Virus record (IMG/VR): IMGVR_UViG_3300005805_003857
Span: 24,369 to 88,368 of that record
Reading direction: 5' to 3' (one strand)
Source: a virus
Lineage: Duplodnaviria; Caudoviricetes
Length of the DNA: 64,000 nt
Positions 19,136 to 54,749 of the stretch are shown here, in pieces. Within the stretch, counting starts at the first letter, position 1. Each line of letters opens with the position of its first letter. The translations under genes were made by a program, and so were the position numbers. The notes below the pieces were generated by a model. That model saw nothing but the letters and a program-made list of their open reading frames with translations, did not search any database and was not told where the DNA came from.

Positions 19136-20143
19136 ATGGATTTCAAAACACTTAATGAGCTTGCAACATGGATGCTTAGTAATATTAGACTGAGCAGATA
19201 TGATGACCAATTCGTAAACAATCTTACCCTTTACATCACACAACATAATCGGATCACTAGTAATCAGGACCTTTTGTTCAGAAAGGTAGCAGGTAAATAT
19301 AAACGACAATTCTCTCAATTAAAAATTGAAGTAGACGAAGTACTGACTCGGTCTTGGGATGTTAACATAGTAGAAAGCATCCCTGAATATACAGGAGCGT
19401 CAATCAAAATAGAGAATGACAAACTGATTCTACAATCTCCTTTTAATAAAAACTTTTTAACAGCACTTAAAAAGAACCCTATCTATTCATTACAGTGGAT
19501 CAAAGATAGACGACAATATGAAGGTGAATATAGTCATACTAATTTAAAAGAATTGATGTACTTGACAGCAGACCACTATTCTATATTGAACTATTGCGAA
19601 AAGGTTACACAAATTATTGAGAGACTTAGCGTATATGAGAATGTTAAATACTGGGTGCCCACTTTAGTCTATAAGGGACATTACTACATTGCCGCATTGA
19701 ATGAACATTTGTATGAAGCAATTAAGGACATTGAAATAACAGACGATTTAAAAACAATAGCAACATTAGTTAAATATGGTATTGGTATCGACCAATCGGT
19801 CACAGATCATTTACTAGAGACAGAAATCCCTGCTAAGGTAAGACTTGCTATAAATTTTCAAGTTGAAATAGAATTGAGGGATACTCAATTAGCAATAGAA
19901 TGGTTAGAAGAATTTGGATGTGATGCAATTTGTGAACCTAAAGCGTTTTTAACTAATTCTAAATTAGATATACACAATACAAGTATCAATGTTTGCAAGA
20001 ATCCTAAAGACTTGAAAAACTATGAGAATAGTGTTATAGTGTATCAACGTGGTAATTTTTCATTAGTTAATGAAACGCCAATGAAGTTATTTAAAATAAT
20101 AAAATTTGTAAACTTGGAACCAATAGATTTAGGACCTAAATGA
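19136..20143 (+). CDS. hypothetical protein upstream of UvsW
   Basis: 335-aa ORF; promoter TTGCAT-17bp-TATACT at 19101-19129. Confidence 0.7.
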   Translation: MDFKTLNELATWMLSNIRLSRYDDQFVNNLTLYITQHNRITSNQDLLFRKVAGKYKRQFSQLKIEVDEVLTRSWDVNIVESIPEYTGASIKIENDKLILQSPFNKNFLTALKKNPIYSLQWIKDRRQYEGEYSHTNLKELMYLTADHYSILNYCEKVTQIIERLSVYENVKYWVPTLVYKGHYYIAALNEHLYEAIKDIEITDDLKTIATLVKYGIGIDQSVTDHLLETEIPAKVRLAINFQVEIELRDTQLAIEWLEEFGCDAICEPKAFLTNSKLDIHNTSINVCKNPKDLKNYENSVIVYQRGNFSLVNETPMKLFKIIKFVNLEPIDLGPK

Positions 20144-21618
20144 AAGAATGTAAAATAGAAATACGAGATGAAGTAAATTGCAAATTAATTGGTCTTGAGC
20201 TTGGAGATCGCAAGACATTGATGAAGATGTTTGAGTTTGAGGTTCCGGGCGCAAGATATCTTCCTGCAGTAAGGTTAGGTAGATGGAATGGTAAGAGTAG
20301 TTTCTTTGCACTAGGTGGTAGTACATATATCAACTTACTACCAGAGATATTGCCATTACTAGATCAGGCTGGTTATGATATTGAACTAGATGATACTAGA
20401 GATTATCAAACAACATTCACATTTACTGAAGTGTCCGAGGATACATTCAAGCACAAGAATTGGCCAGTAGGTCATCCAATGGCGGGACAACCTATCATAT
20501 TGCGTGACTATCAAATTGAGATTATCAATAACTATTTGAAGAACCCTCAGTCATTGCAAGAGATTGCTACAGGTGCAGGTAAGACATTAATCACCGCCGC
20601 ACTATCAAGTTGTGTAGAACAATATGGTCGTAGTATTGTTATTGTTCCTAACACTAGCCTGGTTACACAAACAGAAAAAGATTACATCAACTTGGGGTTA
20701 GATGTAGGTGTCTATTACGGTGGACGTAAAGAATACGACAAGACACATACAATTTGTACGTGGCAGAGCCTAGGTAATATGTTAAAAAACACTAAAGCAG
20801 GTGAAGCAGAAGTACCATTCCAAGACTTCATTGAGGGTGTTGTATGTGTTATTGTAGATGAAGTGCATCAAGCAAAAGCTGATGTTCTTAAATCATTATT
20901 GTCCGGTGTGATGAGTCGTATACCATTACGATGGGGGTTGACTGGAACTATCCCTAAAGCTAAACATGAATCAATGTCATTGACTGTAAGTTTAGGTCCT
21001 GTTATTAATCAATTGTCAGCAAGCACACTACAAGACATGGGTGTGTTATCACAATGTCACGTGAACATTGTTCAATTGCAAGATGGTATGGAGTTTACTA
21101 ACTATCAAAGCGAACTTAAATTCTTGACCAGTGATGAAAAACGAATGCAAAAAATTGCTGAGTTATCTAATACAGTTAAGAACAGTGGCAACACATTGAT
21201 CCTTGTAGATAGGATTGAAGCTGGACAACTATTGCATTTGAAACTAGAAGAACTAGGTGTGCCGGAAGAGAATGTAGTGTTCGTATCAGGCGGAACTAAA
21301 AGTACAACTAGAACTGAACACTATGATGACATTGCTACTGCTACAAACAAGATTATCATTGCTACATATGGTGTTGCGGCAGTTGGAATTAACATTCCCC
21401 GTATCTTTAATGTCATGTTACTTGAGCCGGGCAAGAGTTTTGTAAGAGTGATCCAATCAATAGGTCGTGGTATTCGTAAGGCAGAAGACAAAGATTTTGT
21501 ACAAATTTGGGATATTACTAGTTCATGCAAATTTGCAAAACGACATTTAACACAACGGAAAGCATTCTACAAAGAAGCTAACTACCCGTTTGACGTAGAA
21601 AAACTAAAGTATAAGTGA
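20140..21618 (+). CDS. uvsW: UvsW-like SF2 DNA helicase
   Basis: LRDYQ, ATGAGKT, IVDEVH, GLTGT, GINIPRI, QSIGRGIR. Confidence 0.92.
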   Translation: MKECKIEIRDEVNCKLIGLELGDRKTLMKMFEFEVPGARYLPAVRLGRWNGKSSFFALGGSTYINLLPEILPLLDQAGYDIELDDTRDYQTTFTFTEVSEDTFKHKNWPVGHPMAGQPIILRDYQIEIINNYLKNPQSLQEIATGAGKTLITAALSSCVEQYGRSIVIVPNTSLVTQTEKDYINLGLDVGVYYGGRKEYDKTHTICTWQSLGNMLKNTKAGEAEVPFQDFIEGVVCVIVDEVHQAKADVLKSLLSGVMSRIPLRWGLTGTIPKAKHESMSLTVSLGPVINQLSASTLQDMGVLSQCHVNIVQLQDGMEFTNYQSELKFLTSDEKRMQKIAELSNTVKNSGNTLILVDRIEAGQLLHLKLEELGVPEENVVFVSGGTKSTTRTEHYDDIATATNKIIIATYGVAAVGINIPRIFNVMLLEPGKSFVRVIQSIGRGIRKAEDKDFVQIWDITSSCKFAKRHLTQRKAFYKEANYPFDVEKLKYK

Positions 21619-23801: not shown

Positions 23802-24011
23802 GTGCAACAAGTAACATTGTATATTGATGTTGACAACACACTAGATATAGTATCCGAGCTTAAACAAAAAGGATGGGTACAGGGCAAAGATTTTGATTTT
23901 GCATACCACCAAAGTAAATGGGACGAAATGATTGGGGAAATTCCTAAACAAACAGTTTTCACTTTTTATAATGATAGTAATGCAAGTTATTTTATGTTGA
24001 GGTGGGGATGA
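23802..24011 (+). CDS. small protein, LRW family (copy 2; GTG start)
   Basis: FTFYNDSNASYFMLRWG. Confidence 0.7.
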   Translation: MQQVTLYIDVDNTLDIVSELKQKGWVQGKDFDFAYHQSKWDEMIGEIPKQTVFTFYNDSNASYFMLRWG

Positions 24012-24220
24012 AGGATTTACCATACACTATAATTACTAAGAAACTTGGATATGCCGCAGAAAAGTGGTGTAATAATAATCTAGGAGAACGCTATTTTGCT
24101 ATAGACAGAAAGACAGGTAACTGGACGTGTTTTTATGCAAGTGACATAGATAGAAAAAGTTATCGCTGGCACTTTAGAAATGAAAAAGATGCTTTTTGGT
24201 TTTCACTGACATGGGCATGA
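24008..24220 (+). CDS. small protein, LRW family (copy 3)
   Basis: WHFRNEKDAFWFSLTWA. Confidence 0.7.
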   Translation: MKDLPYTIITKKLGYAAEKWCNNNLGERYFAIDRKTGNWTCFYASDIDRKSYRWHFRNEKDAFWFSLTWA

Positions 24221-24453
24221 GAGTTCAAAACTTTGACCAAAATCGTGGTTGGGAAGAAACTGATCCGGGTTGGTACGAACATCAGATACATGTTAGTATG
24301 AACATGACCGAAACATACGATGATATATTAGAATGGCTGTATAATAGAATAGACAACTGTGAACGCCATGCTAGATGGCGAATCAGTAGAGGGCTTATAC
24401 AACTTAAATTTAGGTATGAGCGTGATGTAATACTATGTAAACTAAGTTTTTAA
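24217..24453 (+). CDS. small protein, LRW family (copy 4, divergent)
   Basis: LKFRYERDVILCKLSF. Confidence 0.65.
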   Translation: MRVQNFDQNRGWEETDPGWYEHQIHVSMNMTETYDDILEWLYNRIDNCERHARWRISRGLIQLKFRYERDVILCKLSF

Positions 24454-24701
24454 TGAACATCGAACATGAGATGATGGAAAAATTAGCAGATGATATGGCA
24501 AAAGAAATTGATTATGACATGCTTGTTACCTTGTTAAATTGGACAAGAGTTGAACTACCGCCATTCGATAGTCGTTATCAAGCCGTTGATATTGCTGATT
24601 GGTGTACTGATAACTGTACAGATAAGTTTATGAACTTTGGTGTTAAGTTTGCTTTTGAGAAAAGTAAAGACGCTGAGTGGTTTATATTGAGGTGGAAATG
24701 A
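24453..24701 (+). CDS. small protein, LRW family (copy 5)
   Basis: FAFEKSKDAEWFILRWK. Confidence 0.7.
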   Translation: MNIEHEMMEKLADDMAKEIDYDMLVTLLNWTRVELPPFDSRYQAVDIADWCTDNCTDKFMNFGVKFAFEKSKDAEWFILRWK

Positions 24702-25126
24702 AAATGACTGACAATGAATTGATTGATTACACTATCAAGTTTGACAATGACCCAGTGAGAGTTAGACTTGCTACATACATGGATCGTCACCCAGGCTCTA
24801 TCCTAGATGACCTTGAACGAGCGGGTATGGACCCAATATACTGCAACTTTAGAGATAAAGACACTTGCAATGATTATCTTCCTGGTCAGTACATCACTCA
24901 CCTTGAAGGTGAAGTCAGTTACCTACAAGAACAATTAGATCAGGCACTAGGTGAAATTGAAGAAATGAAAACAATGAAGGTCAGTGAGTTGATTAGTCAA
25001 CTGCGACAAGAAGTTGTTACGGAAAAATATATGAGAGAAGCGGCAGAACGAAGTCGATATAAAGCGCAAGAAGACCGTGAAGAAATGAAGAACAAACTTG
25101 ACATGTGGGCAATATTGAACAGATAA
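24698..25126 (+). CDS. hypothetical coiled-coil protein
   Basis: Heptad-rich C-terminal half; ATGA coupling. Confidence 0.65.
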   Translation: MKMTDNELIDYTIKFDNDPVRVRLATYMDRHPGSILDDLERAGMDPIYCNFRDKDTCNDYLPGQYITHLEGEVSYLQEQLDQALGEIEEMKTMKVSELISQLRQEVVTEKYMREAAERSRYKAQEDREEMKNKLDMWAILNR

Positions 25127-25392
25127 TGGAATACTTTCATAGTGAAGGTGGCAACAATAAACCGTTTTTCATCTATAGATATAAAATTGATAGGGTATCT
25201 ACTGAGATGTACCTATGGGCAGTAGAATATCCTAGCAAAGGACCCTTTAGTAGATTTCATGTTATATGGAATGCAGTAGAGAAAAATCCATATGACATTA
25301 TTCAATTTGAATTGAAGGACGCTTACTTAGCATTCAAGTATGCGTTCGCAGGAGAGATATTGCAAGACATTACTATACAAGAATATCAGTAA
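25126..25392 (+). CDS. small protein, LRW-related (copy 6)
   Basis: IQFELKDAYLAFKYAF. Confidence 0.55.
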   Translation: MEYFHSEGGNNKPFFIYRYKIDRVSTEMYLWAVEYPSKGPFSRFHVIWNAVEKNPYDIIQFELKDAYLAFKYAFAGEILQDITIQEYQ

Positions 25393-25397
25393 AAGAT

Positions 25398-25616
25398 ATG
25401 GATTATACTATTATCACAGACGGGGCGGATTGTTATCCATGGATAGAAACATTTGTTATATGGCCTAGAAAAAGTATCAGTGGTGCACCTCTATTCTTTA
25501 CTAAAGCATACAAACGTAAAGTTTGGGTAATATGGGGAACTGGCTTTCACATGGAGCCTGAAACGCAATATGCAACACTATTTGATTTGCTAACACATGG
25601 CAACGATACCCAATAA
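25398..25616 (+). CDS. small hypothetical protein
   Basis: Trp-rich ORF in operon. Confidence 0.6.
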   Translation: MDYTIITDGADCYPWIETFVIWPRKSISGAPLFFTKAYKRKVWVIWGTGFHMEPETQYATLFDLLTHGNDTQ

Positions 25617-25872
25617 TATACAAGATTATGATGACGATGATCCTAAAATAGATTTTCGTAAAAGACGATGGAACTATTGGGCGGCATTAAAACTTGTGCG
25701 TAGAGAATATCAGGAACAAAACAAATATACAGAGTTTGATGCGTATGATTTTGAAGATTACCTTGAAGGTAAGTACGGAGTAAAGATGAACATTGTCGGT
25801 GGTAACATAACAGATGGTTATCAGATAGTAGACGAAAAGAAATACTTAATATTTTTATTGAAATTCCAATGA
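25597..25872 (+). CDS. small hypothetical protein (LRW-like tail IVDEKKYLIFLLKF)
   Basis: Operon coupling; similar C-terminal pattern. Confidence 0.6.
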   Translation: MATIPNNIQDYDDDDPKIDFRKRRWNYWAALKLVRREYQEQNKYTEFDAYDFEDYLEGKYGVKMNIVGGNITDGYQIVDEKKYLIFLLKFQ

Positions 25873-26220: not shown

Positions 26221-26772
26221 ATGGATGTAATGATTGATATCGAATCACTAGACACAACACCGGATTGTGTGATTCTTACTATTGGTGCAGTATTGTTTGA
26301 CCCTAAGGGTAGTGGCATTATCGATAAAATTGAGATTCGTCCTACAATTGAAGATCAAACAGAGATTTATAATCGAAGTATTAATGATGCAACAATGGAA
26401 TGGTGGGGCAAGCAATCACCTGAAGCAATTGAAGAAGCTATGGGTGACAGAGACCGTGTCTCTTTTGAAGAGGCAATGAATCAATTGTACAAGTTTTGTT
26501 GGAATCGTAGTAAAGGTGCGTGGAGTAACGGAGCAAGTTTTGACGTGGTAGTTATGGATCATGCTTGGAAACAACTTGGAAAAAACACACCTTGGAACTT
26601 CTGGGATATCAGAGACACCCGTACATTGTATGATATCACTGGTGTCAACCTAAAAGACGGCGGGCATGTAACAAGCCATAAGGCAGTAGAAGATGCTGAA
26701 CGCCAAGCAATCGTTGTACAACAAGGTTATGTGAAATTGATTAAAGCAGGATTGGTAACACCCGCAAGATGA
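26221..26772 (+). CDS. DEDD 3'-5' exonuclease (DUF5051/Rv2179c-like exoribonuclease family)
   Basis: VMIDIESL, ILTIGAV, WSNGASFD, RDTRT, HKAVEDA. Confidence 0.85.
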   Translation: MDVMIDIESLDTTPDCVILTIGAVLFDPKGSGIIDKIEIRPTIEDQTEIYNRSINDATMEWWGKQSPEAIEEAMGDRDRVSFEEAMNQLYKFCWNRSKGAWSNGASFDVVVMDHAWKQLGKNTPWNFWDIRDTRTLYDITGVNLKDGGHVTSHKAVEDAERQAIVVQQGYVKLIKAGLVTPAR

Positions 26773-27350
26773 GAATAGATTCAGATATTGACATTGACTT
26801 TGGTTCAAGGGATGAATTACTAAAGTTGATCCCTCATACACCTGCTTCAATGCGTAATGTCTCTCCTGTGCGTAGACACAATACAGGTGTTTATATAACA
26901 GACATTCCATATGATCCTGTCAATAACATGTCAGCACTTCATTATGAAGATGCAGAGAAGCGTGGATATTTCAAACTAGACTTATTGAATGTGCATGTAT
27001 ACTCTCAGGTTCGAGATGAACGGCACTTGATTGAGTTGATGCGTGAACCTGATTGGTCTAAGCTAAATGATAGAGAATTTGTTGAAAAACTGATTCACTT
27101 GGCAAATCATTATCAGAGTATTCAGAGGATGCCTGAACCTATTAATAGTATCCCTAGACTAGCAATGTTTTTAGCATTGATTCGTCCCGCCAAGAAGCAT
27201 TTAATTGGCAAGAGTTGGAGTGAAGTGAGTCAAACTATATGGAATAAAGAAGATGATGGATATTCTTTTAAGAAAGCCCATGCAATTGGTTATTCGCAAT
27301 TAGTTGCAGTGCATATGAATTTACTTACAACATCCGTTTTACCAGCGTAA
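26769..27350 (+). CDS. miniature DNA polymerase III alpha (DnaE)-like protein
   Basis: DIDIDF, RHNTGVYI, GYFKLDLLN, LAMFLALIRPA and YSFKKAHAIGY match DnaE motifs in order. Confidence 0.8.
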   Translation: MRIDSDIDIDFGSRDELLKLIPHTPASMRNVSPVRRHNTGVYITDIPYDPVNNMSALHYEDAEKRGYFKLDLLNVHVYSQVRDERHLIELMREPDWSKLNDREFVEKLIHLANHYQSIQRMPEPINSIPRLAMFLALIRPAKKHLIGKSWSEVSQTIWNKEDDGYSFKKAHAIGYSQLVAVHMNLLTTSVLPA

Positions 27351-27705
27351 TACTACGGCGTTTGGTCCTACGTTTATGTAGTTCACTTATACTACACGTA
27401 GGACCATGTATGACAGTCAAACTTTTATTGTTAAAAGTCCTTAAATAGGGCTTGAACATAATCCATTCTTCCTTTAAGAATAGATTGATGGGGACTAATC
27501 TATTACTTTCCCACCACCAAACATCCCCTAATTCTAAGAATTTCTCCTTAACTATAGGGTCAATTATAGCACCATAGTCATAGATTGTGGTGACTATATC
27601 ATCTCTATTCTGTACGATTCCAACATAATCTTGGTTGGCATATGAACATATAGTGATGAACGGGTGGTTTTCAGTTAGTTTCTGGAAGAATTCGTTTTGA
27701 ATCAT
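27325..27705 (-). CDS. hypothetical protein (MIQNEFFQKL...)
   Basis: Minus-strand late promoter near 27726-27732; basic C-terminus. Confidence 0.7.
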   Translation of the reverse strand: MIQNEFFQKLTENHPFITICSYANQDYVGIVQNRDDIVTTIYDYGAIIDPIVKEKFLELGDVWWWESNRLVPINLFLKEEWIMFKPYLRTFNNKSLTVIHGPTCSISELHKRRTKRRSITLVKRML

Positions 27706-27771
27706 TGTTATTGTATTGACCGAAATATTTATCATCGGGTTGCCTGGCAATATATTTTGATAAATATGTTT

Positions 27772-28560
27772 ATGTACTCAACTCAAGTATTCGTTTATAC
27801 GCAACGTCAAATCGTTATTCTTTTATCAGGAAATTCCCCTAGGAGTTATATGCCTCAGTATGCCAAGCCACTTACTCTACACAAAGGTGTAGACAATCAA
27901 ATTCAATTTCAGTTCCTTAATCAGGAACAGAAACCTGTCAATATCACGGGAAAAGAAATCTCTTGCAGAATATTAAATGCTACCGGGGTTACAGTTCTTA
28001 TTAGAAAAGCACTTACTATTCAATTAGGTGCAACAGGCATAGCCGCATTAATGTTAAACCCAGGAGAGCTAGAAGAAATTGAAGCACAAAAATGTTATTA
28101 CACATTAGAGATTCCAGTAGGCACATTTGATTACCCTGTATTCGTAGACCAAAATGCAGGTGGTCGTGGCGATATGAACATTGTTAATAGCATATTACCT
28201 AGCTTTGTTCCTAGTAATGAACTAACTATTCCCACTGGTCAAGCATATCCTAACCCAGATTGGTATTCAAACGACGGAGAATATATGCCTGATTCTAATT
28301 CGGTCGTATATTATACTAGTGTTTATACCACAAGCAACAATCCTACATTAACACTGCAAGCCACATATACTGACTTCTATGGTAATGTATTGATTGAAGG
28401 TTCTACTATTGGTAACACAGATTGGTATCCAATCAGTACAATATATAGTTATACTGAAATAACAGACACATTCCATTATAATGTAAATGGATATCACCCA
28501 TTCATCCGTGTGGGCTTTGTAAGCAATGCGGGCGCAGTAACCAATATATTGGCAAGATAA
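27772..28560 (+). CDS. putative virion structural protein (BppU/Ig-like N-terminal pattern)
   Basis: LTLHKGVDNQIQFQFLNQEQKPVNITG; late promoter at 27760. Confidence 0.55.
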   Translation: MYSTQVFVYTQRQIVILLSGNSPRSYMPQYAKPLTLHKGVDNQIQFQFLNQEQKPVNITGKEISCRILNATGVTVLIRKALTIQLGATGIAALMLNPGELEEIEAQKCYYTLEIPVGTFDYPVFVDQNAGGRGDMNIVNSILPSFVPSNELTIPTGQAYPNPDWYSNDGEYMPDSNSVVYYTSVYTTSNNPTLTLQATYTDFYGNVLIEGSTIGNTDWYPISTIYSYTEITDTFHYNVNGYHPFIRVGFVSNAGAVTNILAR

Positions 28561-28598: not shown

Positions 28599-29579
28599 AT
28601 GTTCGATATTCTGTCTATAATTCCAGGCAAGAAAAAACTCACTCAAGGCGGCTGGCAAAGCTTTAATGCTGTGTGCTGTAATCATCGTGGGCACAAGACC
28701 GACACCCGTAGTCGAGGTGGTGTGAAATTTGACGGACAAACTAATTGGTCATATCATTGTTTTAATTGCGGGTTCAAGTGTGGGTTTACATTAGGTAAGA
28801 GTTTATCAAAGAACACACGACAGTTACTGATATGGTCTGGAGTTGATGATACGCAAATTAGTAAGTGGAGTTTAGAAAGTTTACAACAAAAAGATATATT
28901 AGACTTTACACAACCTAAGAAGAAAGTTAAGATTAAGTTTGATGAACACAAATTGCCTGAAGATGCAGAACTACTTGATAAGAATAATCCACTACACAAA
29001 GTATATGTAGACTATTTACATGCTAGGGGTATAAGTAGTAGTGAATATCCTTTCATGGTCACTCCTAACGAATCAAGTCGCATGGGAAATCGCATCATCA
29101 TTCCTTATACATACAAAAACAAGATTGTCGGTCAAACAAGTAGATTCTTAGACAATAAGATTCCGAAATATATCAACGAACAACAACCTGGTTATGTATT
29201 TGGTTATGACTTTCAACAACCTAATCAAAGTGTTTGTATACTAGTCGAAGGCATCTTTGATGCACTGAGTCTAGGTGCTTGTGCGTTAACCCATAATACG
29301 ATTAATGACGAGCAAGCAGAACTACTATCACACCTTAACAGACAAATCATTTTCGTCCCCGACCGTGATAAAACAGGATTTGACTCCTGTGAGAGGGCAA
29401 TTCAATTAGGCTATAATGTCAGTCTCCCATATTGGGACAGTGACGTAAAAGATGTTAATGATGCCATTGTCAAATATGGTAGACTACCTACACTACTCAG
29501 TATATTACAGTCTGCTACAATGAGCAAAATTAAAATAGAAATACAAAGGAAGAAAATTGGTAAACAAAACGGATTCTAA
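28599..29579 (+). CDS. gp61: DNA primase (T4 gp61-like)
   Basis: Zn-binding C..C/H...CFNC; TOPRIM LVEGIFDA and VPDRDKTG. Confidence 0.9.
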   Translation: MFDILSIIPGKKKLTQGGWQSFNAVCCNHRGHKTDTRSRGGVKFDGQTNWSYHCFNCGFKCGFTLGKSLSKNTRQLLIWSGVDDTQISKWSLESLQQKDILDFTQPKKKVKIKFDEHKLPEDAELLDKNNPLHKVYVDYLHARGISSSEYPFMVTPNESSRMGNRIIIPYTYKNKIVGQTSRFLDNKIPKYINEQQPGYVFGYDFQQPNQSVCILVEGIFDALSLGACALTHNTINDEQAELLSHLNRQIIFVPDRDKTGFDSCERAIQLGYNVSLPYWDSDVKDVNDAIVKYGRLPTLLSILQSATMSKIKIEIQRKKIGKQNGF

Positions 29580-31017
29580 AAAGCAGATTGATTATACACC
29601 AGATGTACAAAAGCTTTTTTTAAGAATGATGATGACTAACGCTGAGTTATATACTCGGGTTATGAACATTATGAACAGTGAAAACTTTGACAAAAGCCTG
29701 CGTCCAGTAGCAGACATGTTCAAAGAACACACTGACAGATATAAAGTTTTGCCTGATGTAACTCAGGTTAAAGCAATGACAGGAGTAGAGATTGAACCTA
29801 TCCCTGACTTAAGTGAAGGGCACAATGAATGGTTCTTTGATGCATTTGAAGCATTTACTAAGCGACAAGAACTAGAACGGGCTATTCTCAAAGCCGCAGA
29901 CTTACTTGAGAAGGGTGACTTTAGTCCTGTTGAAAAACTAATCAAAGATGCAGTGCAGATTAGTCTACAGCGAGACATGGGTACTGATTACTTCTTTGAC
30001 CCTAAAGGTCGTATTAACAAATACTTCAATGCAGGCGGGCAAGTCTCGACAGGCTGGCCCCAGATGGATCGTATTTTATATGGTGGTATGAGTCGAGGTG
30101 AACTCAACATCTTTGCAGGTGGCTCGGGTTCAGGTAAGAGTCTTGTTATGATGAACATTGCATTGAACTGGTTACAAGCAGGGATGAGCGGAGTCTACAT
30201 CACACTTGAATTGAGTGAAGAATTAACAAGTTTGCGTACTGATGCTATGTTAACACAGATGGGTACAAAGTCAATTCGTAAAGACATTGATACAACCGAT
30301 CTTAAAGTTAAGATGGTAGGTAAGAAGTCTGGTAAGTATCGTGTTAAAGGATTGCCTGCACAAAGTAATGTGAATGATATTCGTGCTTACTTAAAAGAGG
30401 TACAAATACAAACAGGCATTAAGATTGACTTTGTGATGGTTGACTACTTAGACTTGGTTATGCCTGTCTCTGTTAAAGTTAATCCTAACGACCAGTTCAT
30501 TAAAGACAAGTATGTTGCTGAAGAATTGCGTAACTTAGCTAAAGAGATGGGTATCTTGTTAGTCACAGCTAGTCAGTTGAATCGTTCAGCCGTTGACGAA
30601 ATTGAATTTGACCATAGTCACATTGCAGGTGGTATCAGTAAGATTAATACAGCAGATAACGTGTTTGGTATTTTTACAAGTCGTAGTATGCGTGAGCGTG
30701 GTAAGTATCAGATTCAATGTATGAAGTCACGTAGTTCAACTGGTGTGGGCATGAAGATTGACTTAGACTATGACATTGAAACAATGCGTATTAGTGATAG
30801 TGATCCTGATGGATATGCGGATCAACAAGCAAAGTATCGTCCAGCACCTAGCCCGACTGACATTATGAATCAAGTAAAAGCACAATCTACACTAGTTTCT
30901 ACAGAACCTATCATTGACCAAGCTACGGGCGAAATAATAGAACCTCTGAATAAGAAGGTTGTAGTAGACGTTCAGGGTTCAAAACTCAAAAATTTACTCA
31001 ACAGTTTGAAGAAATAA
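29557..31017 (+). CDS. gp41: DnaB-like replicative helicase (T4 gp41-like)
   Basis: AGGSGSGKS, ITLEL, VMVDYLDL, TASQLNR, MKSR. Confidence 0.92.
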   Translation: MVNKTDSKKQIDYTPDVQKLFLRMMMTNAELYTRVMNIMNSENFDKSLRPVADMFKEHTDRYKVLPDVTQVKAMTGVEIEPIPDLSEGHNEWFFDAFEAFTKRQELERAILKAADLLEKGDFSPVEKLIKDAVQISLQRDMGTDYFFDPKGRINKYFNAGGQVSTGWPQMDRILYGGMSRGELNIFAGGSGSGKSLVMMNIALNWLQAGMSGVYITLELSEELTSLRTDAMLTQMGTKSIRKDIDTTDLKVKMVGKKSGKYRVKGLPAQSNVNDIRAYLKEVQIQTGIKIDFVMVDYLDLVMPVSVKVNPNDQFIKDKYVAEELRNLAKEMGILLVTASQLNRSAVDEIEFDHSHIAGGISKINTADNVFGIFTSRSMRERGKYQIQCMKSRSSTGVGMKIDLDYDIETMRISDSDPDGYADQQAKYRPAPSPTDIMNQVKAQSTLVSTEPIIDQATGEIIEPLNKKVVVDVQGSKLKNLLNSLKK

Positions 31018-31033
31018 GACTAAATACTATATC

Positions 31034-31288
31034 ATGCAAAAACAAACTCGCAGCCTTTTGGAAGAATTAGAGTCGATTGGCAATAACCGTGATACAAGTC
31101 ACATTATTGAGAGCCGTGGCCATAACATCATTACTAGCGCAATCAATTTGCTAGAAATGATTAATAAACACTATACACCAGAACAGGCCGAGATATTAGA
31201 GCGCAAGCTACTAAGTGCTATCAAAAGCAAGGATCAGAGTAGGTTTGCTAAGTCACTAAAAAAGAACAGTAAAAATGAGCCTATCTGA
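31034..31288 (+). CDS. small hypothetical protein
   Basis: CTAAATA late-promoter variant upstream; SLLEE N-terminal pattern. Confidence 0.65.
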   Translation: MQKQTRSLLEELESIGNNRDTSHIIESRGHNIITSAINLLEMINKHYTPEQAEILERKLLSAIKSKDQSRFAKSLKKNSKNEPI

Positions 31289-32420
31289 ATCCCTATCATC
31301 ACTCAAATCTAAAATTGAAAAACTATCGATTTTAGAAGGAAAAGGTCACCTTGACCATCCTGAGGATATGGTGTTTCTTGGTGGCAGTCAGGGTGCTACT
31401 CAAGCAATTAATGCTACAGTCGCTACTGCAAAGAATCCTAAGACAGTTACAATCAAGTGGGACGGTTATCCTGCATTAATATTTGGTCGTGGAACTAATG
31501 GCAAGTTCACTATTATGGACAAGCACATGTTCAACAAGAAAGATCAAACAGGACGCCAGGTATTCAGCCCTCAACAGTTTGTTGAATATGATCGTGCCCG
31601 TGGAGTAGATCGTTCAGGGTTGTATCAGATTATTGCAGACTTATGGCCTGGACTTGAAAAAGCAGATAACAGTAAAGGTTTTTATTGGGGTGACTTATTG
31701 TTCACCCAACCATTACAAGACCAAAACGGCATGTACAAGTTTAAAGCGAATCCTAATGGTATCGCATACACAGTAGACTCTGATAGTGAAATAGGTCAGT
31801 TGTTCAAGGGTAAGCAATCTGCTATTGTTGTACACCAGTTCATTCCTGCATCAGCACAAACTACTGATGAATCAGTACCATTAGACGGTGGTATAGGAGC
31901 ATTGAAGAATAATAGCAATGTAGCTATTGTTCCTGCTAAAATGCCTATCACTCCTAAACTAAAAGTAGATGCGGCATTAATCAAAAATGCACAGAGTGCG
32001 GTTAGCCAGCATGGAGCCGCAGTTGATAAGTTAATGAATACTGCACCGCAAGCTGCCAACACATTTCAAACATTATTTACTACATATATCAACAAACGTA
32101 TTGTTGCAGGTGATTTGAACAATTTAGTCGATGGATTCATGGAATACTTTAAAGCACGTCCTATGACTGACGCTATGCGAACTAAGTTGACACAGCACTT
32201 AGAAGCAAACAAAGAAGGTCTAGTTGGTGCATTTACTATCTGGGTAGCGTTATATCAAATGAAAATGAACTTAGTTGCACAACTAAACAAAGCCGCAGAA
32301 GCAAGTCCTGTCAAAGGCTATTTACAAGACGGTACACAAACCCAAGAGGGTTTTGTTGCTAACGGACTTAAATTTGTAGATAGAATGGGCTTTAGTCGCC
32401 AAAATCTAGCCGGAAGATAA
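31275..32420 (+). CDS. DUF6267-like protein with ligase-type nucleotidyltransferase motifs
   Basis: HLDHPED, TIKWDG, FYWGDLLF, QEGFVANGLKFVDR. Confidence 0.6.
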   Translation: MSLSESLSSLKSKIEKLSILEGKGHLDHPEDMVFLGGSQGATQAINATVATAKNPKTVTIKWDGYPALIFGRGTNGKFTIMDKHMFNKKDQTGRQVFSPQQFVEYDRARGVDRSGLYQIIADLWPGLEKADNSKGFYWGDLLFTQPLQDQNGMYKFKANPNGIAYTVDSDSEIGQLFKGKQSAIVVHQFIPASAQTTDESVPLDGGIGALKNNSNVAIVPAKMPITPKLKVDAALIKNAQSAVSQHGAAVDKLMNTAPQAANTFQTLFTTYINKRIVAGDLNNLVDGFMEYFKARPMTDAMRTKLTQHLEANKEGLVGAFTIWVALYQMKMNLVAQLNKAAEASPVKGYLQDGTQTQEGFVANGLKFVDRMGFSRQNLAGR

Positions 32421-35355: not shown

Positions 35356-36051
35356 TTGACTATAATGTACAATCCCACAAAATTCAATTATGTTCCCATG
35401 AGCCGTGTAGAGATAGACGGCAAACGCCGTTATGCTACACCTGATGGTGAGAAACTACCCAGTGTCACTACGATACTAGACTTTACCAAGTCAGAAGAAT
35501 CAAAACAAGCATTACAAAACTGGCGCAAGCGTGTTGGTGTTCAAAAAGCGCAAGAGATTACTACAGAAGCCGCAGGTCGTGGCACACGAATGCACAAGTG
35601 GCTAGAAGATTACATTAAGACTGGTGTACTCAATGAGCCCGGAAGCAATCCATATAGCATCCAAAGCCATAAAATGGCCCAGAACATTATCTATCAAGGT
35701 CTTAGCAAGTGTAATGAATACTGGGGCACAGAAGTTCCTTTGTATTTTCCAAAGATTTACGCAGGGACGACGGACTTAGTAGGAATACATGATAGCGATG
35801 AAGCTATCATGGATCACAAACAAACAAATAAGCCTAAAAAGCGTGAGTGGATCGATGATTACTTTGTTCAGTTAGCGGCTTATGCTAATGCACATAATGA
35901 ATTACACGGAACAAAGATACGCAAAGGTGTCATTTTTATGTGTTCTGCTGATAATCTATATCAGGAATTCATCTTAGAAGGCTCTGAATTCGACAAGTAT
36001 ACTGATATGTGGTTCAAAAGAGTCGAACAGTACTATACACAGTTCCTATAA
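35356..36051 (+). CDS. PD-(D/E)XK exonuclease
   Basis: PSVTTIL, RGTRMH, EVPLY, YAGTTDL, DHKQT, QLAAYA; promoter TTGACA(35328)-17bp-TATAAT. Confidence 0.85.
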   Translation: MTIMYNPTKFNYVPMSRVEIDGKRRYATPDGEKLPSVTTILDFTKSEESKQALQNWRKRVGVQKAQEITTEAAGRGTRMHKWLEDYIKTGVLNEPGSNPYSIQSHKMAQNIIYQGLSKCNEYWGTEVPLYFPKIYAGTTDLVGIHDSDEAIMDHKQTNKPKKREWIDDYFVQLAAYANAHNELHGTKIRKGVIFMCSADNLYQEFILEGSEFDKYTDMWFKRVEQYYTQFL

Positions 36052-36094: not shown

Positions 36095-36790
36095 ATGGTC
36101 ATATATAAAACAATCAATCAAATTAATGGTAAATGGTACATTGGTAAAGACGCCAGCAACCGCTCTTACTATCTAGGATCAGGAAAAGCATTAAGAAATG
36201 CTTTGAAAAAGTACGGGAAACAAAACTTTATAAAAGTTATCCTCGAAGAATGCACTGATCTTATCCATCTATCTATCCGTGAAAAACACTGGATAAGCAT
36301 TACCTCGGCTACCACTAATTCTATGAGTTACAATATTGCACCAGGCGGTGAAGGTGGTAATCGCAATGGCTTCATTGATTATACAAAAATAGATTATAGT
36401 AATCATAAAATGACTGGTGCTATTAATTGGTTCAACTCACTTAATGAAACCGAGAAAAAAGAATTTCATGCTACACAGGCTTTAACAAGATGTAAAGGCT
36501 GGTATGTTAGTACAGTGGATGACCCCACGGAGACGTATGTGCTTAATATTGCTCAGTGGTGTAAAGATAATAACGTAGACCCTTCAACAGTTTCAAACTT
36601 GACGAATCCTAGTCATGTATTATTTCAAAAACAAGTTAAAGGATGGAGATTTAGAAAAGAAGGACAGGCCCGATTATCCAAATATGTGAATAAACAAAAA
36701 ATTGGTCATCCCAATGTAGCGTGTAAGGGTAAATCATGGAAAATTGTCAATGGTATACGAGTTTGGTTTAATAAGGAGACTGTACTATGA
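36095..36790 (+). mobile_element. free-standing GIY-YIG (Seg-like) homing endonuclease
   Basis: IYKTINQINGKWYIGK...YLGSG, REKHWI, YNIAPGGEGG; late promoter at 36061. Confidence 0.9.
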
Positions 36791-51176: not shown

Positions 51177-54100
51177 ATGGCATTAACATCTCCAGGCGTA
51201 GAAGTAACGATCACAGACCAAAGTCAGTATCTTCCAGCCCCAACAAATTCAGTCCCTCTAGTTCTAATAGCAACTGCTCAAAACAAAGCAAATGCTACTA
51301 ATACAGGTATTGCAGCGGCAACTACGGCCGCTAACGCAAATAAATTATATCAAGTAACAAGTCAGCGTGATTTAGTAAGCTTATATGGTAATCCGTTCTT
51401 CTACACAACGACAAATGGTACACCAATTCAAGGTTATGAACTCAACGAATACGGCTTGCTAGCGGCATATTCATTACTAGGTGTAACTAATCGTTGCTAC
51501 GTTTTACGTTGTGATATTAATTTAGCTAGCTTGGTTGGCCAAACAAGTCGTCCAACTGGTGCACCCGAAGACGGATCTTATTGGTTAGATAGCACAACTT
51601 CAACATGGGGTATATATGTATTCAACCAGACTACTGGTCAATTCACATTACAAACTCCTATCGTTATAACTGATCCGGCATCATTATCGAGTGGTGTACC
51701 TTTGAATAGTATTGGTAGCATTGGTAATTATGCCATCAACGCAATACAATCAACTACTTCACCAACTGATCCTTCTGGTAAAACATTCTTTTATAAGACA
51801 ACAGATAATTTTTGGGTTACATTAGGCGGAGGTGCATGGAGAAGCGATATACCTACTGTTCAGGGCTCTATTTCTAATCCAACAATAGTTACATCAAGTA
51901 CTTTTACAATAAATGTAAGTGGTCTATATACAGCAACATTAACTGTAACTGGTACAACGGTTGCCGATGTAGCGACGGCAATTAATGATTTAGACACCCC
52001 AACTGTAACTGCTAGGGTAGTTAGTGGTAAATTACAAATTTTATCAAATCAACTACCTACATCCGTAATACGGTACGTTCAACTTACTGATGGTACCAAC
52101 ACACCATTAGCAGATTGCGGTATTGCTGACGGTACATATAATCAGCCTGCAGTATTTTACGGTACATCTGCTCAGATGCCATTATGGACTAGTAGTCAGA
52201 CAACACCAAGACCCACTGGTTCTGTATGGATTAAAATTGGTACTGCTGGTAATGGTTTATATCCTAGTGTTTCTCGATACAGTACTGCTACTGCTAGTTG
52301 GATAGCAAAAAATATAACTCAGGCTAATTCTGATTGGGCAGAAATTGCGGCAATCGATTCAACCGGTGGTCAAGCAATTCCTGCAGGTACAATTTATGGT
52401 CAATATAATTTTACTGGAAACTCAACAACTGCCCCTTATTATCTATGGGAACGCATTGCAACTGGACCTACTGTGGTAACATGTGAAAATACAGCACCTA
52501 TATTTACCGCAGGTGGAGACCTTAAGGCATCAGTAAGCGTTCCGGGAAGTAGTTCAATGTCCTCTAGTTACACAATAACGCTAGGAGCTGGTGCAGATGC
52601 AGTTGATTTTGTAACAGCATGGTCAGCGGCTGGCATACCAAATACACTAGCTAGTGTGGCCACTGATGGTGCAATTACATTAACACATACCCAGGGTGGT
52701 GTTATACTTTTAGGTGATATAGTATCAAATGTAAGTAGTGGTATTATTGCTGAAATGGGATTAACAATAGGAACAACTACTGGTGTTAAATACGGACCAT
52801 CACACCTATATAGTTGGTCTAATATAGCCTGTACAGGCGGTACTGGTACAGGGGCTACATTTAATATTCAGGCTAGCTACGGTGTATATTTCTTAAATGG
52901 TACTGGTATTTTTACAGGTGGTACAGGTTATTCGGTAGGAGATGTTCTTACTATTGCTGGAACATTATTAAACGGTACTAGTGCAAATAACTTGACACTA
53001 GTAGTCACTGAAGTCAGTGGCTCAGGTGCTGTAACAGGTATAGCGTATCAGTCCGGTACACCAATACAAACGTTTAGCACCCAATTAAGCAACTGGGTAG
53101 AGTTTACTTATACAAGTAATGAAGGTGCACCAGTAGCAATACCTACTAATAACACGAACTGGTTCTACTCTGTCACTAATCAAGTAGATATTATGGTTCA
53201 AAAAGGTGGTGCATGGGTAGGTTATGGTACTACTGCATATGACATTAACGGAAACCCGGCAGCGACTGGTGGAAATACCACTGATCCAAATGGTCCTATC
53301 ATTTCAGCCACAGCACCAGTATTACAAAGTGACGGCACTGCTCTATCATACGGTGACTTATGGATTGATACAAGCAATTTAGAAGTATATCCAGTAATCT
53401 ATCGTTGGGAAGCAGTTAGTGGAATAGATCAATGGGTTCTAATTAACACTACTGACCAAGTAAGTCAAGACGGTATTGTATTCCAAGACGCTCGTTGGGG
53501 CCCAAATGGTTCGATAAACCCAGTTAATGATCCTATCCCAACAATCAAGTCAATGTTAACAAGTAACTATGTTGACTTAGACGCACCGGTTGCAACACTA
53601 TACCCACAAGGTATGTTGTTATTCAACACACGCCGTTCGGGATATAATATCAAACAATTTAGAACAAATTATTTTACAAGTGCGAAATATCCTAACGCAG
53701 GAGCATACAATCCGGCTGCCCCGACTAACATTGCTAACTTACCTCAATTCAGTTATACATGGGTATCAGTAAGTGGTAACAATGCAGATGGCGTAGCATA
53801 CATGGGCAGAAATGCACAACGTGCTATGGTTGTACAAGCATTACGTGCTTCTATCGACACTAACACTGCAATACGTGATGAAGATAACTACTTCAACTTG
53901 ATGGCTACTCCTAACTATCCAGAACTACAACCTAACATGGTTGTATTGAATGCGGATCGTGGTGAGACAGCTTATATTATTGGTGATACCCCATTAGGTC
54001 TTGCTGATAGTGCCACTGACATTCAGGCATGGGCTAACAACGATGCAGGTGCTGTATCTACCGGTGAAGCTGGTTTAGTTACACGTAATACTTACTTAGG

Positions 54101-54749
54101 TCTATTCTATCCAAGTGGTATTGCTAATGACTTGTCAGGTAACGAAGTTGTTGTTCCAGCATCACATATGATGTTGCGTACATTCTTGCGTAATGATACT
54201 GTTGCTTATCCTTGGTTAGCACCAGCTGGTACTCGCCGTGGTAACATTGACAATGCATTAAACATTGGTTATTTGGATCGTACAACAGGTGAGTTCCAGC
54301 CAATCAAGACACGTATTGGTATCCGTGATGTACTATACATCAACCAAATTAACCCAATGGTATTCTTCACTGGAGTTGGCTTGTTGAACTATGGTAACAA
54401 GAATAGTTTCAACTCACAAAGTGCATTAGACAGAATCAATGTTGCACGACTAGTTAACTATGTACGCCGTCAGTTAACGATTGCGGCTCGTCCGTTCGTA
54501 TTCGAACCTAACGATCAATTAACACGCAACGAGATTTCAGGTGTTGTACAAACATTGTTAGTTGACTTGGTTGCTAAACGTGGTCTATATGATTACTTGG
54601 TTGTTTGTGACGAAAGTAACAATACACCAGCTCGTATAGATAGAAACGAATTGTGGATTGATGTTGCAATTGAGCCAGTCAAGGCTGCTGAATTCATCTA
54701 CATCCCGGTTCGTGTTCTAAACACAGGTGAGATATCAGGTACAGTGTAA
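51177..54749 (+). CDS. gp18: contractile tail sheath protein (gp18-like) with large insertions
   Basis: LTSPGVEV, WLAPAGTRRG, INVARL, FVFEPND, VVCDESNNTP..IDRNEL. Confidence 0.95.
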   Translation: MALTSPGVEVTITDQSQYLPAPTNSVPLVLIATAQNKANATNTGIAAATTAANANKLYQVTSQRDLVSLYGNPFFYTTTNGTPIQGYELNEYGLLAAYSLLGVTNRCYVLRCDINLASLVGQTSRPTGAPEDGSYWLDSTTSTWGIYVFNQTTGQFTLQTPIVITDPASLSSGVPLNSIGSIGNYAINAIQSTTSPTDPSGKTFFYKTTDNFWVTLGGGAWRSDIPTVQGSISNPTIVTSSTFTINVSGLYTATLTVTGTTVADVATAINDLDTPTVTARVVSGKLQILSNQLPTSVIRYVQLTDGTNTPLADCGIADGTYNQPAVFYGTSAQMPLWTSSQTTPRPTGSVWIKIGTAGNGLYPSVSRYSTATASWIAKNITQANSDWAEIAAIDSTGGQAIPAGTIYGQYNFTGNSTTAPYYLWERIATGPTVVTCENTAPIFTAGGDLKASVSVPGSSSMSSSYTITLGAGADAVDFVTAWSAAGIPNTLASVATDGAITLTHTQGGVILLGDIVSNVSSGIIAEMGLTIGTTTGVKYGPSHLYSWSNIACTGGTGTGATFNIQASYGVYFLNGTGIFTGGTGYSVGDVLTIAGTLLNGTSANNLTLVVTEVSGSGAVTGIAYQSGTPIQTFSTQLSNWVEFTYTSNEGAPVAIPTNNTNWFYSVTNQVDIMVQKGGAWVGYGTTAYDINGNPAATGGNTTDPNGPIISATAPVLQSDGTALSYGDLWIDTSNLEVYPVIYRWEAVSGIDQWVLINTTDQVSQDGIVFQDARWGPNGSINPVNDPIPTIKSMLTSNYVDLDAPVATLYPQGMLLFNTRRSGYNIKQFRTNYFTSAKYPNAGAYNPAAPTNIANLPQFSYTWVSVSGNNADGVAYMGRNAQRAMVVQALRASIDTNTAIRDEDNYFNLMATPNYPELQPNMVVLNADRGETAYIIGDTPLGLADSATDIQAWANNDAGAVSTGEAGLVTRNTYLGLFYPSGIANDLSGNEVVVPASHMMLRTFLRNDTVAYPWLAPAGTRRGNIDNALNIGYLDRTTGEFQPIKTRIGIRDVLYINQINPMVFFTGVGLLNYGNKNSFNSQSALDRINVARLVNYVRRQLTIAARPFVFEPNDQLTRNEISGVVQTLLVDLVAKRGLYDYLVVCDESNNTPARIDRNELWIDVAIEPVKAAEFIYIPVRVLNTGEISGTV

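Follow-up and report, generated by a model that had tools for sequence, protein, structure and literature searches.

The stretch of DNA considered here, called the window, comprises 64,000 nucleotides of a virus (Duplodnaviria; Caudoviricetes), positions 24,369 to 88,368 of IMG/VR record IMGVR_UViG_3300005805_003857. It is the final 64 kb of an 88-kb record, which is rated only about 21% complete, and thus represents a fragment of a jumbo myophage. The open reading frame (ORF) at 26769..27350 encodes a protein of 193 residues, which is very probably a half-enzyme, namely the C-terminal unit (C-unit) of a minimal DNA polymerase III (Pol III) alpha subunit that is divided between two genes in group 2.2 jumbo myophages. 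An earlier note on this DNA, made by a model from the letters and the ORF translations, had regarded the protein as a stripped-down nucleotidyltransferase coupled to the exonuclease encoded beside it.

The exonuclease is a DEDDh 3'-5' enzyme, and its gene overlaps that of the C-unit in an ATGA, where the start codon occupies 26769-26771 and the stop codon 26770-26772. The C-unit contains, in this order, the motifs DIDIDF (residues 6-11), RHNTGVYI (36-43), GYFKLDLLN (66-74), LAMFLALIRPA (131-141) and YSFKKAHAIGY (165-175). Their key residues are D6, D8 and D10 of DxDxD, H37 and G40 of HxxG, K69 and D71 of KxD, R139 and P140 of RP, and the Y-x-F-K-K-x-H signature at 165-171. Both reading frames, the overlap and the order of the five motifs are present as the earlier note described them.

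Relationship of the 193-residue protein to DnaE

The C-unit matches the family phrog_11778, annotated 'DNA polymerase', over nearly its entire length (E 3.9e-58; residues 5-189 against profile positions 7-194 of 197). Its match to the 1190-position DnaE family phrog_405 is weak and falls into two pieces, at positions 581-635 and 777-809. A Pfam scan of the 193-residue protein gave no match, and a phmmer search with the single sequence found nothing among the Protein Data Bank (PDB) sequences. A family profile was built from 80 diverse homologs, which are 31-54% identical to the query. Against the PDB this profile found nine distinct DnaE sequences with E values of 7.8e-6 to 2.2e-4, and the next match, at 0.45, was noise. 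On the E. coli alpha subunit, residues 55-140 align to 539-641, from KxD to RPG, and residues 151-180 align to 739-769, which contains YGFNKSH. The nearest homolog in an isolate, Sinorhizobium phage Phosso, is at most 47% identical.

The catalytic residues are strongly conserved among the 80 C-units. D6, D8, K69, D71 and P140 are invariant (80/80), H37 and H171 occur in 79, and D10, G40 and R139 in 78. Retention of the three catalytic aspartates, D8, D10 and D71, had been claimed from the one sequence and extends to the family. The length of the protein is conserved as well (179-231 residues in the family set, median 196). At least 7,957 C-unit clusters exist at 90% identity, with 189-203 residues among the members listed, and 393 at 50% identity, in which full-length members have about 180-230 residues. 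The ratio of nonsynonymous to synonymous substitutions (dN/dS), calculated pairwise against relatives in its clade, has a median of 0.10, and the gene is thus under purifying selection.

The profile matches, the conserved catalytic residues and the dN/dS of about 0.10 uphold homology to DnaE, which, judged by these sequence comparisons, goes beyond a chance resemblance of motifs. They also exclude that the gene is the decaying remnant of a dnaE acquired by horizontal transfer. Nothing except the small size of the protein speaks for decay, and the number of clusters of matching length, the uneroded aspartates and the fixed split point described below make it hardly credible; the earlier note had likewise judged that the gene is not decaying. 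It had also described the PHP, thumb, OB and clamp-binding parts of DnaE as absent. This is borne out: PF02811, the PHP family, has no match in five complete related genomes, and the C-unit ends 18 residues past the finger motif.

The two genes of the probable split enzyme

A split minimal Pol III alpha has been described in group 2.2 jumbo phages (Iyer et al. 2021, PMC7824862, section 3.4.1). It consists of two proteins, an N-terminal NTP-binding unit (N-unit) and a C-terminal unit that binds Mg2+ and the template. The same division is seen in the complete genomes of Phosso and PAC2, a PA5oct-like Pseudomonas phage, where matches to the DnaE profile are divided between two short ORFs. The N-unit ORFs, 169-177 residues long in these phages, account for positions 362-436 of the profile (E 1.9e-10 and 2.4e-8) and are also matched by PF07733 (E 5e-12 and 4e-9). 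Their C-unit homologs cover positions of about 580-678 and 776-809. Positions of phrog_405 past 809 were unmatched in every genome searched.

The C terminus of the N-unit reads '...GVGRGSS...EFL(N/K)', so that the GRGS nucleotide-binding motif is situated in the N-unit. About 60 non-redundant N-unit ORFs from IMG/VR, of about 170 residues, all have their C terminus at most a few residues from ...EFLK, mostly 0-3 beyond it, and the C-units start 3-8 residues upstream of DxDxD. Because the one protein ends at ...EFLK and the other starts just before DxDxD, the sequences place the break at a single fixed point inside the palm, between the helix of the GS motif and the first metal-binding strand.

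In cyanobacteria DnaE is also made in two pieces, dnaE-n and dnaE-c, which are joined by intein-mediated protein trans-splicing. In both systems a C-family catalytic subunit is encoded by two distant genes, but the phage version has no intein, is split inside the palm and is miniaturized. An intein-split DnaE was considered for the phage genes and rejected: the N-unit stop and the C-unit start lie so close to the break that there is no room for intein halves, and in the fused proteins described below the linker has only about 11 residues.

In a tblastn search of phage records the C-unit was found in 96 and the N-unit in 121, and both occur in the same jumbo-phage lineages. When the records are sorted by the host genus in their names, the numbers of records with each unit are equal: 34 for Escherichia, 8 each for Erwinia and Salmonella, 4 each for Xanthomonas and Yersinia, and 2 for Agrobacterium. 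Some of the surplus N-unit records, for example a Staphylococcus phage match with a weak E value, look as if they may be phages with an ordinary DnaE. The two units are 34-224 kb apart in phage records, and many GenBank records already name one or both of them 'DNA polymerase III alpha'.

Within the clade of the window the arrangement is constant. In all four of the large IMG/VR contigs that are long enough, one of which is 524 kb and 100% complete, a distance of about 44 kb separates the C-unit from an N-unit downstream on the same strand; a fifth contig stops short of this point. By this spacing the N-unit of the present phage would start near window position 70.5 kb, but the record stops about 6.5 kb earlier, at 64.0 kb. 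In three distant lineages the genes downstream of the N-unit are alike (L182:1486-2736; L003:1195-2576; L004:1219-2410). They encode a protein of about 113-153 residues with a common N-terminal motif, followed by an ORF of 108-125 residues that is GroES-like by eye.

The two units are fused naturally in a few proteins. An exhaustive homolog search found a protein of 375 residues, P0176, with a C-unit at residues 190-372 and, at residues 6-179, a segment that aligns with the N-unit of Phosso (E 2e-24). PF07733 matches it with E 4.8e-16 and spans the junction into DFDID. Two further fused clusters from other samples, of 376 residues and 78-81% identical to P0176, bring the number to three, and the homolog search gave no others. 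To judge from these sequences, the fusion is real but limited to one small lineage.

Structure predictions were made for both the fused and the separate protein. The input for the fused protein combined the fusions, the nearest N-units and diverse C-units; only six sequences back its N-part. The AlphaFold2 model has a mean predicted local distance difference test score (pLDDT) of 83.3 and a predicted template modelling score (pTM) of 0.80, and most of residues 71-375 exceed 90. In a Foldseek search of the PDB, DnaE or PolC structures fill each of the top 17 places (E 1.8e-7 to 1.7e-3), after which E rises to about 2. VIA-align gave Z scores of 14-20.7 for DnaE and PolC compared to 2.8 for the next family. 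Residues 75-375 of the model superimpose on residues 291-830 of the T. aquaticus alpha subunit (288 residues at 3.0 Å), and nothing aligns beyond 830. By this alignment about 300 residues stand for a DnaE span of about 540. On the published domain map of E. coli alpha, the absent parts would correspond to the thumb and a large share of the fingers.

The C-unit alone, modelled from a shallow set of close homologs (73% identity or more), has a pLDDT of only 62.8, and its residues 1-73 are disordered (pLDDT below 50). Foldseek returned only noise for this model. A palm fold, which the earlier note had proposed to look for, is thus not predicted for the C-unit by itself; it is the fused homolog that matches DnaE and PolC. 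The predicted disorder of the aspartate-bearing residues 1-73 is suggestive of a half-palm that needs a partner.

In the most probable arrangement, to be read as a proposal, the C-unit would supply the metal-binding strands (DxDxD and KxD) of a Pol-beta-like nucleotidyltransferase palm, together with a much reduced helical module that would serve as fingers and bind the template. The N-unit, which ends where the C-unit begins in DnaE numbering, would contribute the remainder of the palm and with it the GRGS motif that would bind the nucleotide phosphates. The two proteins would join non-covalently, without an intein, to form one active site, in which D8, D10 and D71 would carry out two-metal nucleotidyl transfer. 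The pair may be a small and probably non-processive accessory DNA polymerase that works beside a family-B replicase and a T4-type primase-helicase in repair, gap filling or the synthesis of one strand. An accessory role in DNA synthesis of this kind has been proposed for the family (PMC7824862).

A self-sufficient miniature polymerase or transferase of 193 residues, as favored in the earlier note, is very improbable. Such an enzyme would agree with the presence of all three catalytic aspartates and with the conserved length of the protein. However, the N-unit co-occurs with the C-unit throughout, natural fusions of the two exist, the palm half that bears GRGS resides in the N-unit, and the lone model is disordered over the aspartate-bearing segment. 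In clade relatives that palm half is encoded by the separate gene about 44 kb away, and of the functions listed in the earlier note it is the split-polymerase subunit that proves to be the right one. As one way to refute its reading, the note had named missing domains that turn out to be encoded elsewhere as a split gene. This holds for about 100 residues of the palm, which are found in the N-unit, but the PHP, thumb and OB domains are not supplied in this way.

It is also conceivable, though unlikely, that the assembled N- and C-units work as a nucleotidyltransferase other than a templated DNA polymerase, engaged in untemplated tailing, in the synthesis or extension of short primers, or in nucleotide-based counter-defence. 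The small size of the modelled core relative to DnaE, the absence of a PHP domain and the apparent loss of the thumb, most of the fingers and the clamp-binding and OB parts would fit such an activity, as would the fact that these genomes already hold one or two family-B polymerases. Pol-beta-fold transferases (Rel, Cid1) rank below DnaE and PolC, at noise level only. The finger motifs RP and Y-x-F-K-K-S-H, on the other hand, are nearly invariant, and the gene stays beside those of the primase, helicase and UvsW in all lineages. In published DnaE structures the counterparts of these motifs belong to the fingers, close to both the template and the incoming nucleotide, a position that would favor a templated polymerase.

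Several points weigh against the assignment of the window's protein to a two-gene polymerase. Profile searches of its own 88-kb record, including one with PF07733, found no N-unit; the empty result carries no information, because the record is a fragment and ends before the expected position. The presence of an N-unit in the source phage itself is inferred by analogy with its clade relatives. In the structure predictions, the contrast between a disordered C-unit and an ordered fused protein is confounded by the deeper alignment of the latter, and the predicted fold belongs to a homolog with 40% identity in its C-part and not to the window's own protein. A literature search found no report of experimental work on any member of the family, be it on physical interaction or on polymerase activity. 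Finally, the apparent loss of the thumb and most of the fingers from the model makes templated, processive synthesis uncertain.

The split enzyme of the window and its relatives shares with bacterial DnaE and PolC a Pol-beta-like palm, the DxD and KxD metal ligands, the GRGS motif (in the N-unit) and the finger motifs RP(G/A) and Y-G/x-F-N/K-K-S-H. It differs from them in size, having about 365 residues in two polypeptides compared to 1100-1400 in one, and in that, outside the rare fusions, no single protein contains the complete palm. It lacks the PHP domain and apparently the thumb, most of the fingers, the beta-clamp motif, the HhH and OB domains and the tau-binding tail. Furthermore, unlike DnaE and PolC, the miniature enzyme coexists with a family-B replicase.

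The family to which the C-unit belongs was already described from sequence in 2021 (PMC7824862; phrog_11778), and the present locus adds minor detail. Its copy comes from an uncultured clade and differs in nothing essential: family, size, motifs and the primase and helicase neighborhood are the same, and in clade relatives so are the N-unit partner and the co-occurrence of a family-B polymerase. The additions are the fixed split point and the rare fused lineage that folds onto DnaE, together with the constant distance of about 44 kb to the N-unit in this clade and the confinement of the exonuclease adjacency to it. Proteins that look like a 'mini-DnaE' of 190 residues thus represent one published family of half-enzymes. 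No smaller relative of the bacterial replicase is known than the split minimal Pol III, which has been put forward as a model for the ancestral form of the replicase. The family is very abundant in metagenomes (thousands of clusters at 90% identity) and is an attractive target for biochemistry.

The adjacent exonuclease

The assignment of the neighboring protein to the DEDD exonucleases, made in the earlier note, is confirmed by a match to PF16473 (118.1 bits compared to a cut-off of 27) that takes in residues 2-167 of the protein and positions 2-174 of the 177 in the profile. The Exo I, II and III motifs are legible in its sequence, and its dN/dS is about 0.05. It thus resembles the Rv2179c-like DEDDh exonucleases over the full length of the Pfam family, whose named member is an exoribonuclease.

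The gene order was surveyed in the clade at 80 IMG/VR loci with C-units of 70-99% identity, and 77 of the loci were assessable. In 64 of these the exonuclease and the C-unit are directly adjacent, in 12 an insert of 340-1608 bp lies between them, and in one there is no exonuclease within 3 kb. Inserts positioned exactly between the two genes were noted at L020:5247-6011 and at loci L107-L113, L121, L139, L141, L144, L153 and L171. An ORF of 254 residues in one of the inserts has no Pfam match. This gap seems to be a site at which a mobile or accessory gene inserts repeatedly.

In four isolate genomes, Phosso, PAC2, RaK2 and Atu_ph07, there is no exonuclease upstream of the C-unit; compared to these, the habitual contact of the two genes is peculiar to the present clade. 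PF16473 is absent from the whole genomes of PAC2 and Atu_ph07, although both polymerase halves are present; in Phosso and RaK2, distances of 107 and 41 kb, respectively, separate its gene from the C-unit. Members of the exonuclease family are found in 670 phage records; the best 60 listed are all small phages, and none of these is among the records with a C-unit. No exonuclease was found beside the N-unit at the N-unit loci examined. The adjacency is the gene order of one clade and not a conserved partnership. The earlier note's coupling of polymerase and exonuclease as a property of the system is therefore not sustained.

Bacterial Pol III proofreads with a separate DEDDh subunit, and the exonuclease of this clade might be a dedicated epsilon-like subunit for proofreading or trimming, giving a minimal proofreading polymerase made of three proteins. 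The ATGA overlap, the adjacency across a range of C-unit identities from 70 to 99%, the full-length family match and the low dN/dS all argue for such a subunit. We nevertheless consider it unlikely, given the phages that lack the exonuclease or encode it far away, the 12 clade loci that tolerate inserts, the occurrence of the family in many phages other than C-unit bearers, and the description of PF16473 in Pfam as an exoribonuclease family. A little less probable still is the stronger proposition that the N-unit, the C-unit and the overlapping exonuclease constitute the smallest known proofreading C-family polymerase, with about 550 residues in three proteins. If true, the three-subunit complex would be a working model of the primordial Pol III core.

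Genome context and other features of the window

The features around the C-unit are listed in the table.

Table. Coordinates, strands and family matches of the C-unit gene and other genes of the replication region (window positions).
Feature	Position	Strand	Matches and remarks
UvsW-like superfamily-2 helicase	20140..21618	+	PF04851, PF00271, PF00270
DEDDh 3'-5' exonuclease, Rv2179c-like, 183 residues	26221..26772	+	PF16473 E 4.5e-34; phrog_255 E 2e-41
C-terminal unit (C-unit), split minimal DNA polymerase III alpha (probable), 193 residues	26769..27350	+	phrog_11778
Convergent ORF, up to 141 residues	27325..27750	-	phrog_11637 E 3e-29
Conserved neighbor ORF	27697..28560	+	phrog_1084 E 1.2e-10; 'virion structural protein' in RaK2, Phosso, Atu_ph07
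T4 gp61-type DNA primase (Toprim)	28599..29579	+	PF13155 E 4e-5; phrog_47 E 1.2e-36
DnaB-like / T4 gp41-type replicative helicase	29557..31017	+	PF03796 E 7.6e-19; phrog_19 E 4.4e-67

The primase gene starts 1.25 kb downstream of the C-unit and is followed by that of the DnaB-like helicase, at the distance of about 1.2 kb given in the earlier note. The UvsW-like helicase gene is upstream of the C-unit and has the same relative position in PAC2, in RaK2, where it is annotated as UvsW, and in clade contig L020. The location of the C-unit beside the primase, helicase and UvsW genes is kept across the lineages of Phosso, PAC2, RaK2 and Atu_ph07. It is compatible with an accessory role in DNA synthesis. 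Gene position is weak evidence for function, however, because the entire replication block is syntenic among these phages.

The convergent ORF overlaps the 3' end of the C-unit gene by about 26 nucleotides with its own 3' end. A reverse-strand equivalent follows the C-unit in every lineage examined (Phosso, PAC2, RaK2, Atu_ph07 and the clade contigs). Neither Pfam nor an Atlas look-up gave a lead for this protein of 141 residues. The next ORF probably starts later than the TTG at 27697, since its homologs are 229-236 residues long.

The window also codes for a tail sheath and a T4 gp15-like protein. Together with the primase, the helicase and the UvsW-like helicase, these identify a group 2.2 jumbo myophage with a T4-type replisome, and the T4-type replication setting named in the earlier note is confirmed. 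A PHP domain (PF02811) was found in none of five complete related genomes; in a control the search detected it in 14/14 genomes. Family-B polymerase ORFs are present in Phosso, in PAC2 and in the complete clade genome G001 (IMGVR_UViG_3300027749_002876, 524 kb), which has two. The combination of a family-B polymerase with a split Pol III and no PHP agrees with the published description (PMC7824862). The family-B polymerase that the earlier note had suggested looking for is thus found in relatives; a search of the window's own record with PF00136 found none, the record being a fragment. The two polymerase ORFs of G001 encode 1117 and 917 residues and are situated on opposite strands near the ends of the contig, at about 19.7-21.1 kb (+) and 508.8-510.2 kb (-).

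The tail sheath gene (51177-54749, +) is unusually long. It encodes 1190 residues, of which only the last 100 or so match PF17482, the sheath C-terminal domain. A DUF6267 protein (E 2.8e-38) is encoded right after the helicase at 31275-32420 (+), and the order is the same in L018, L020 and L021. Two adjacent ORFs of 231 residues at 35356-36051 and 36095-36790 (+) have sub-threshold matches to nucleases, PD-(D/E)XK with E 0.0015 and SegE-like GIY-YIG with E 0.0008, and may be genes of the homing-endonuclease type.

The region 23802-25872 (+) contains a tandem run of small ORFs of 69-95 residues, whose starts and stops overlap. Several of the proteins end in F-x-F-x3-(K/R)-D-A-x-(W/Y)-F-x-L-(R/T)-W. 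Their alignment reveals a loose common architecture with one invariant Trp and 15-25% identity, and the run may be an array of diverged paralogs.

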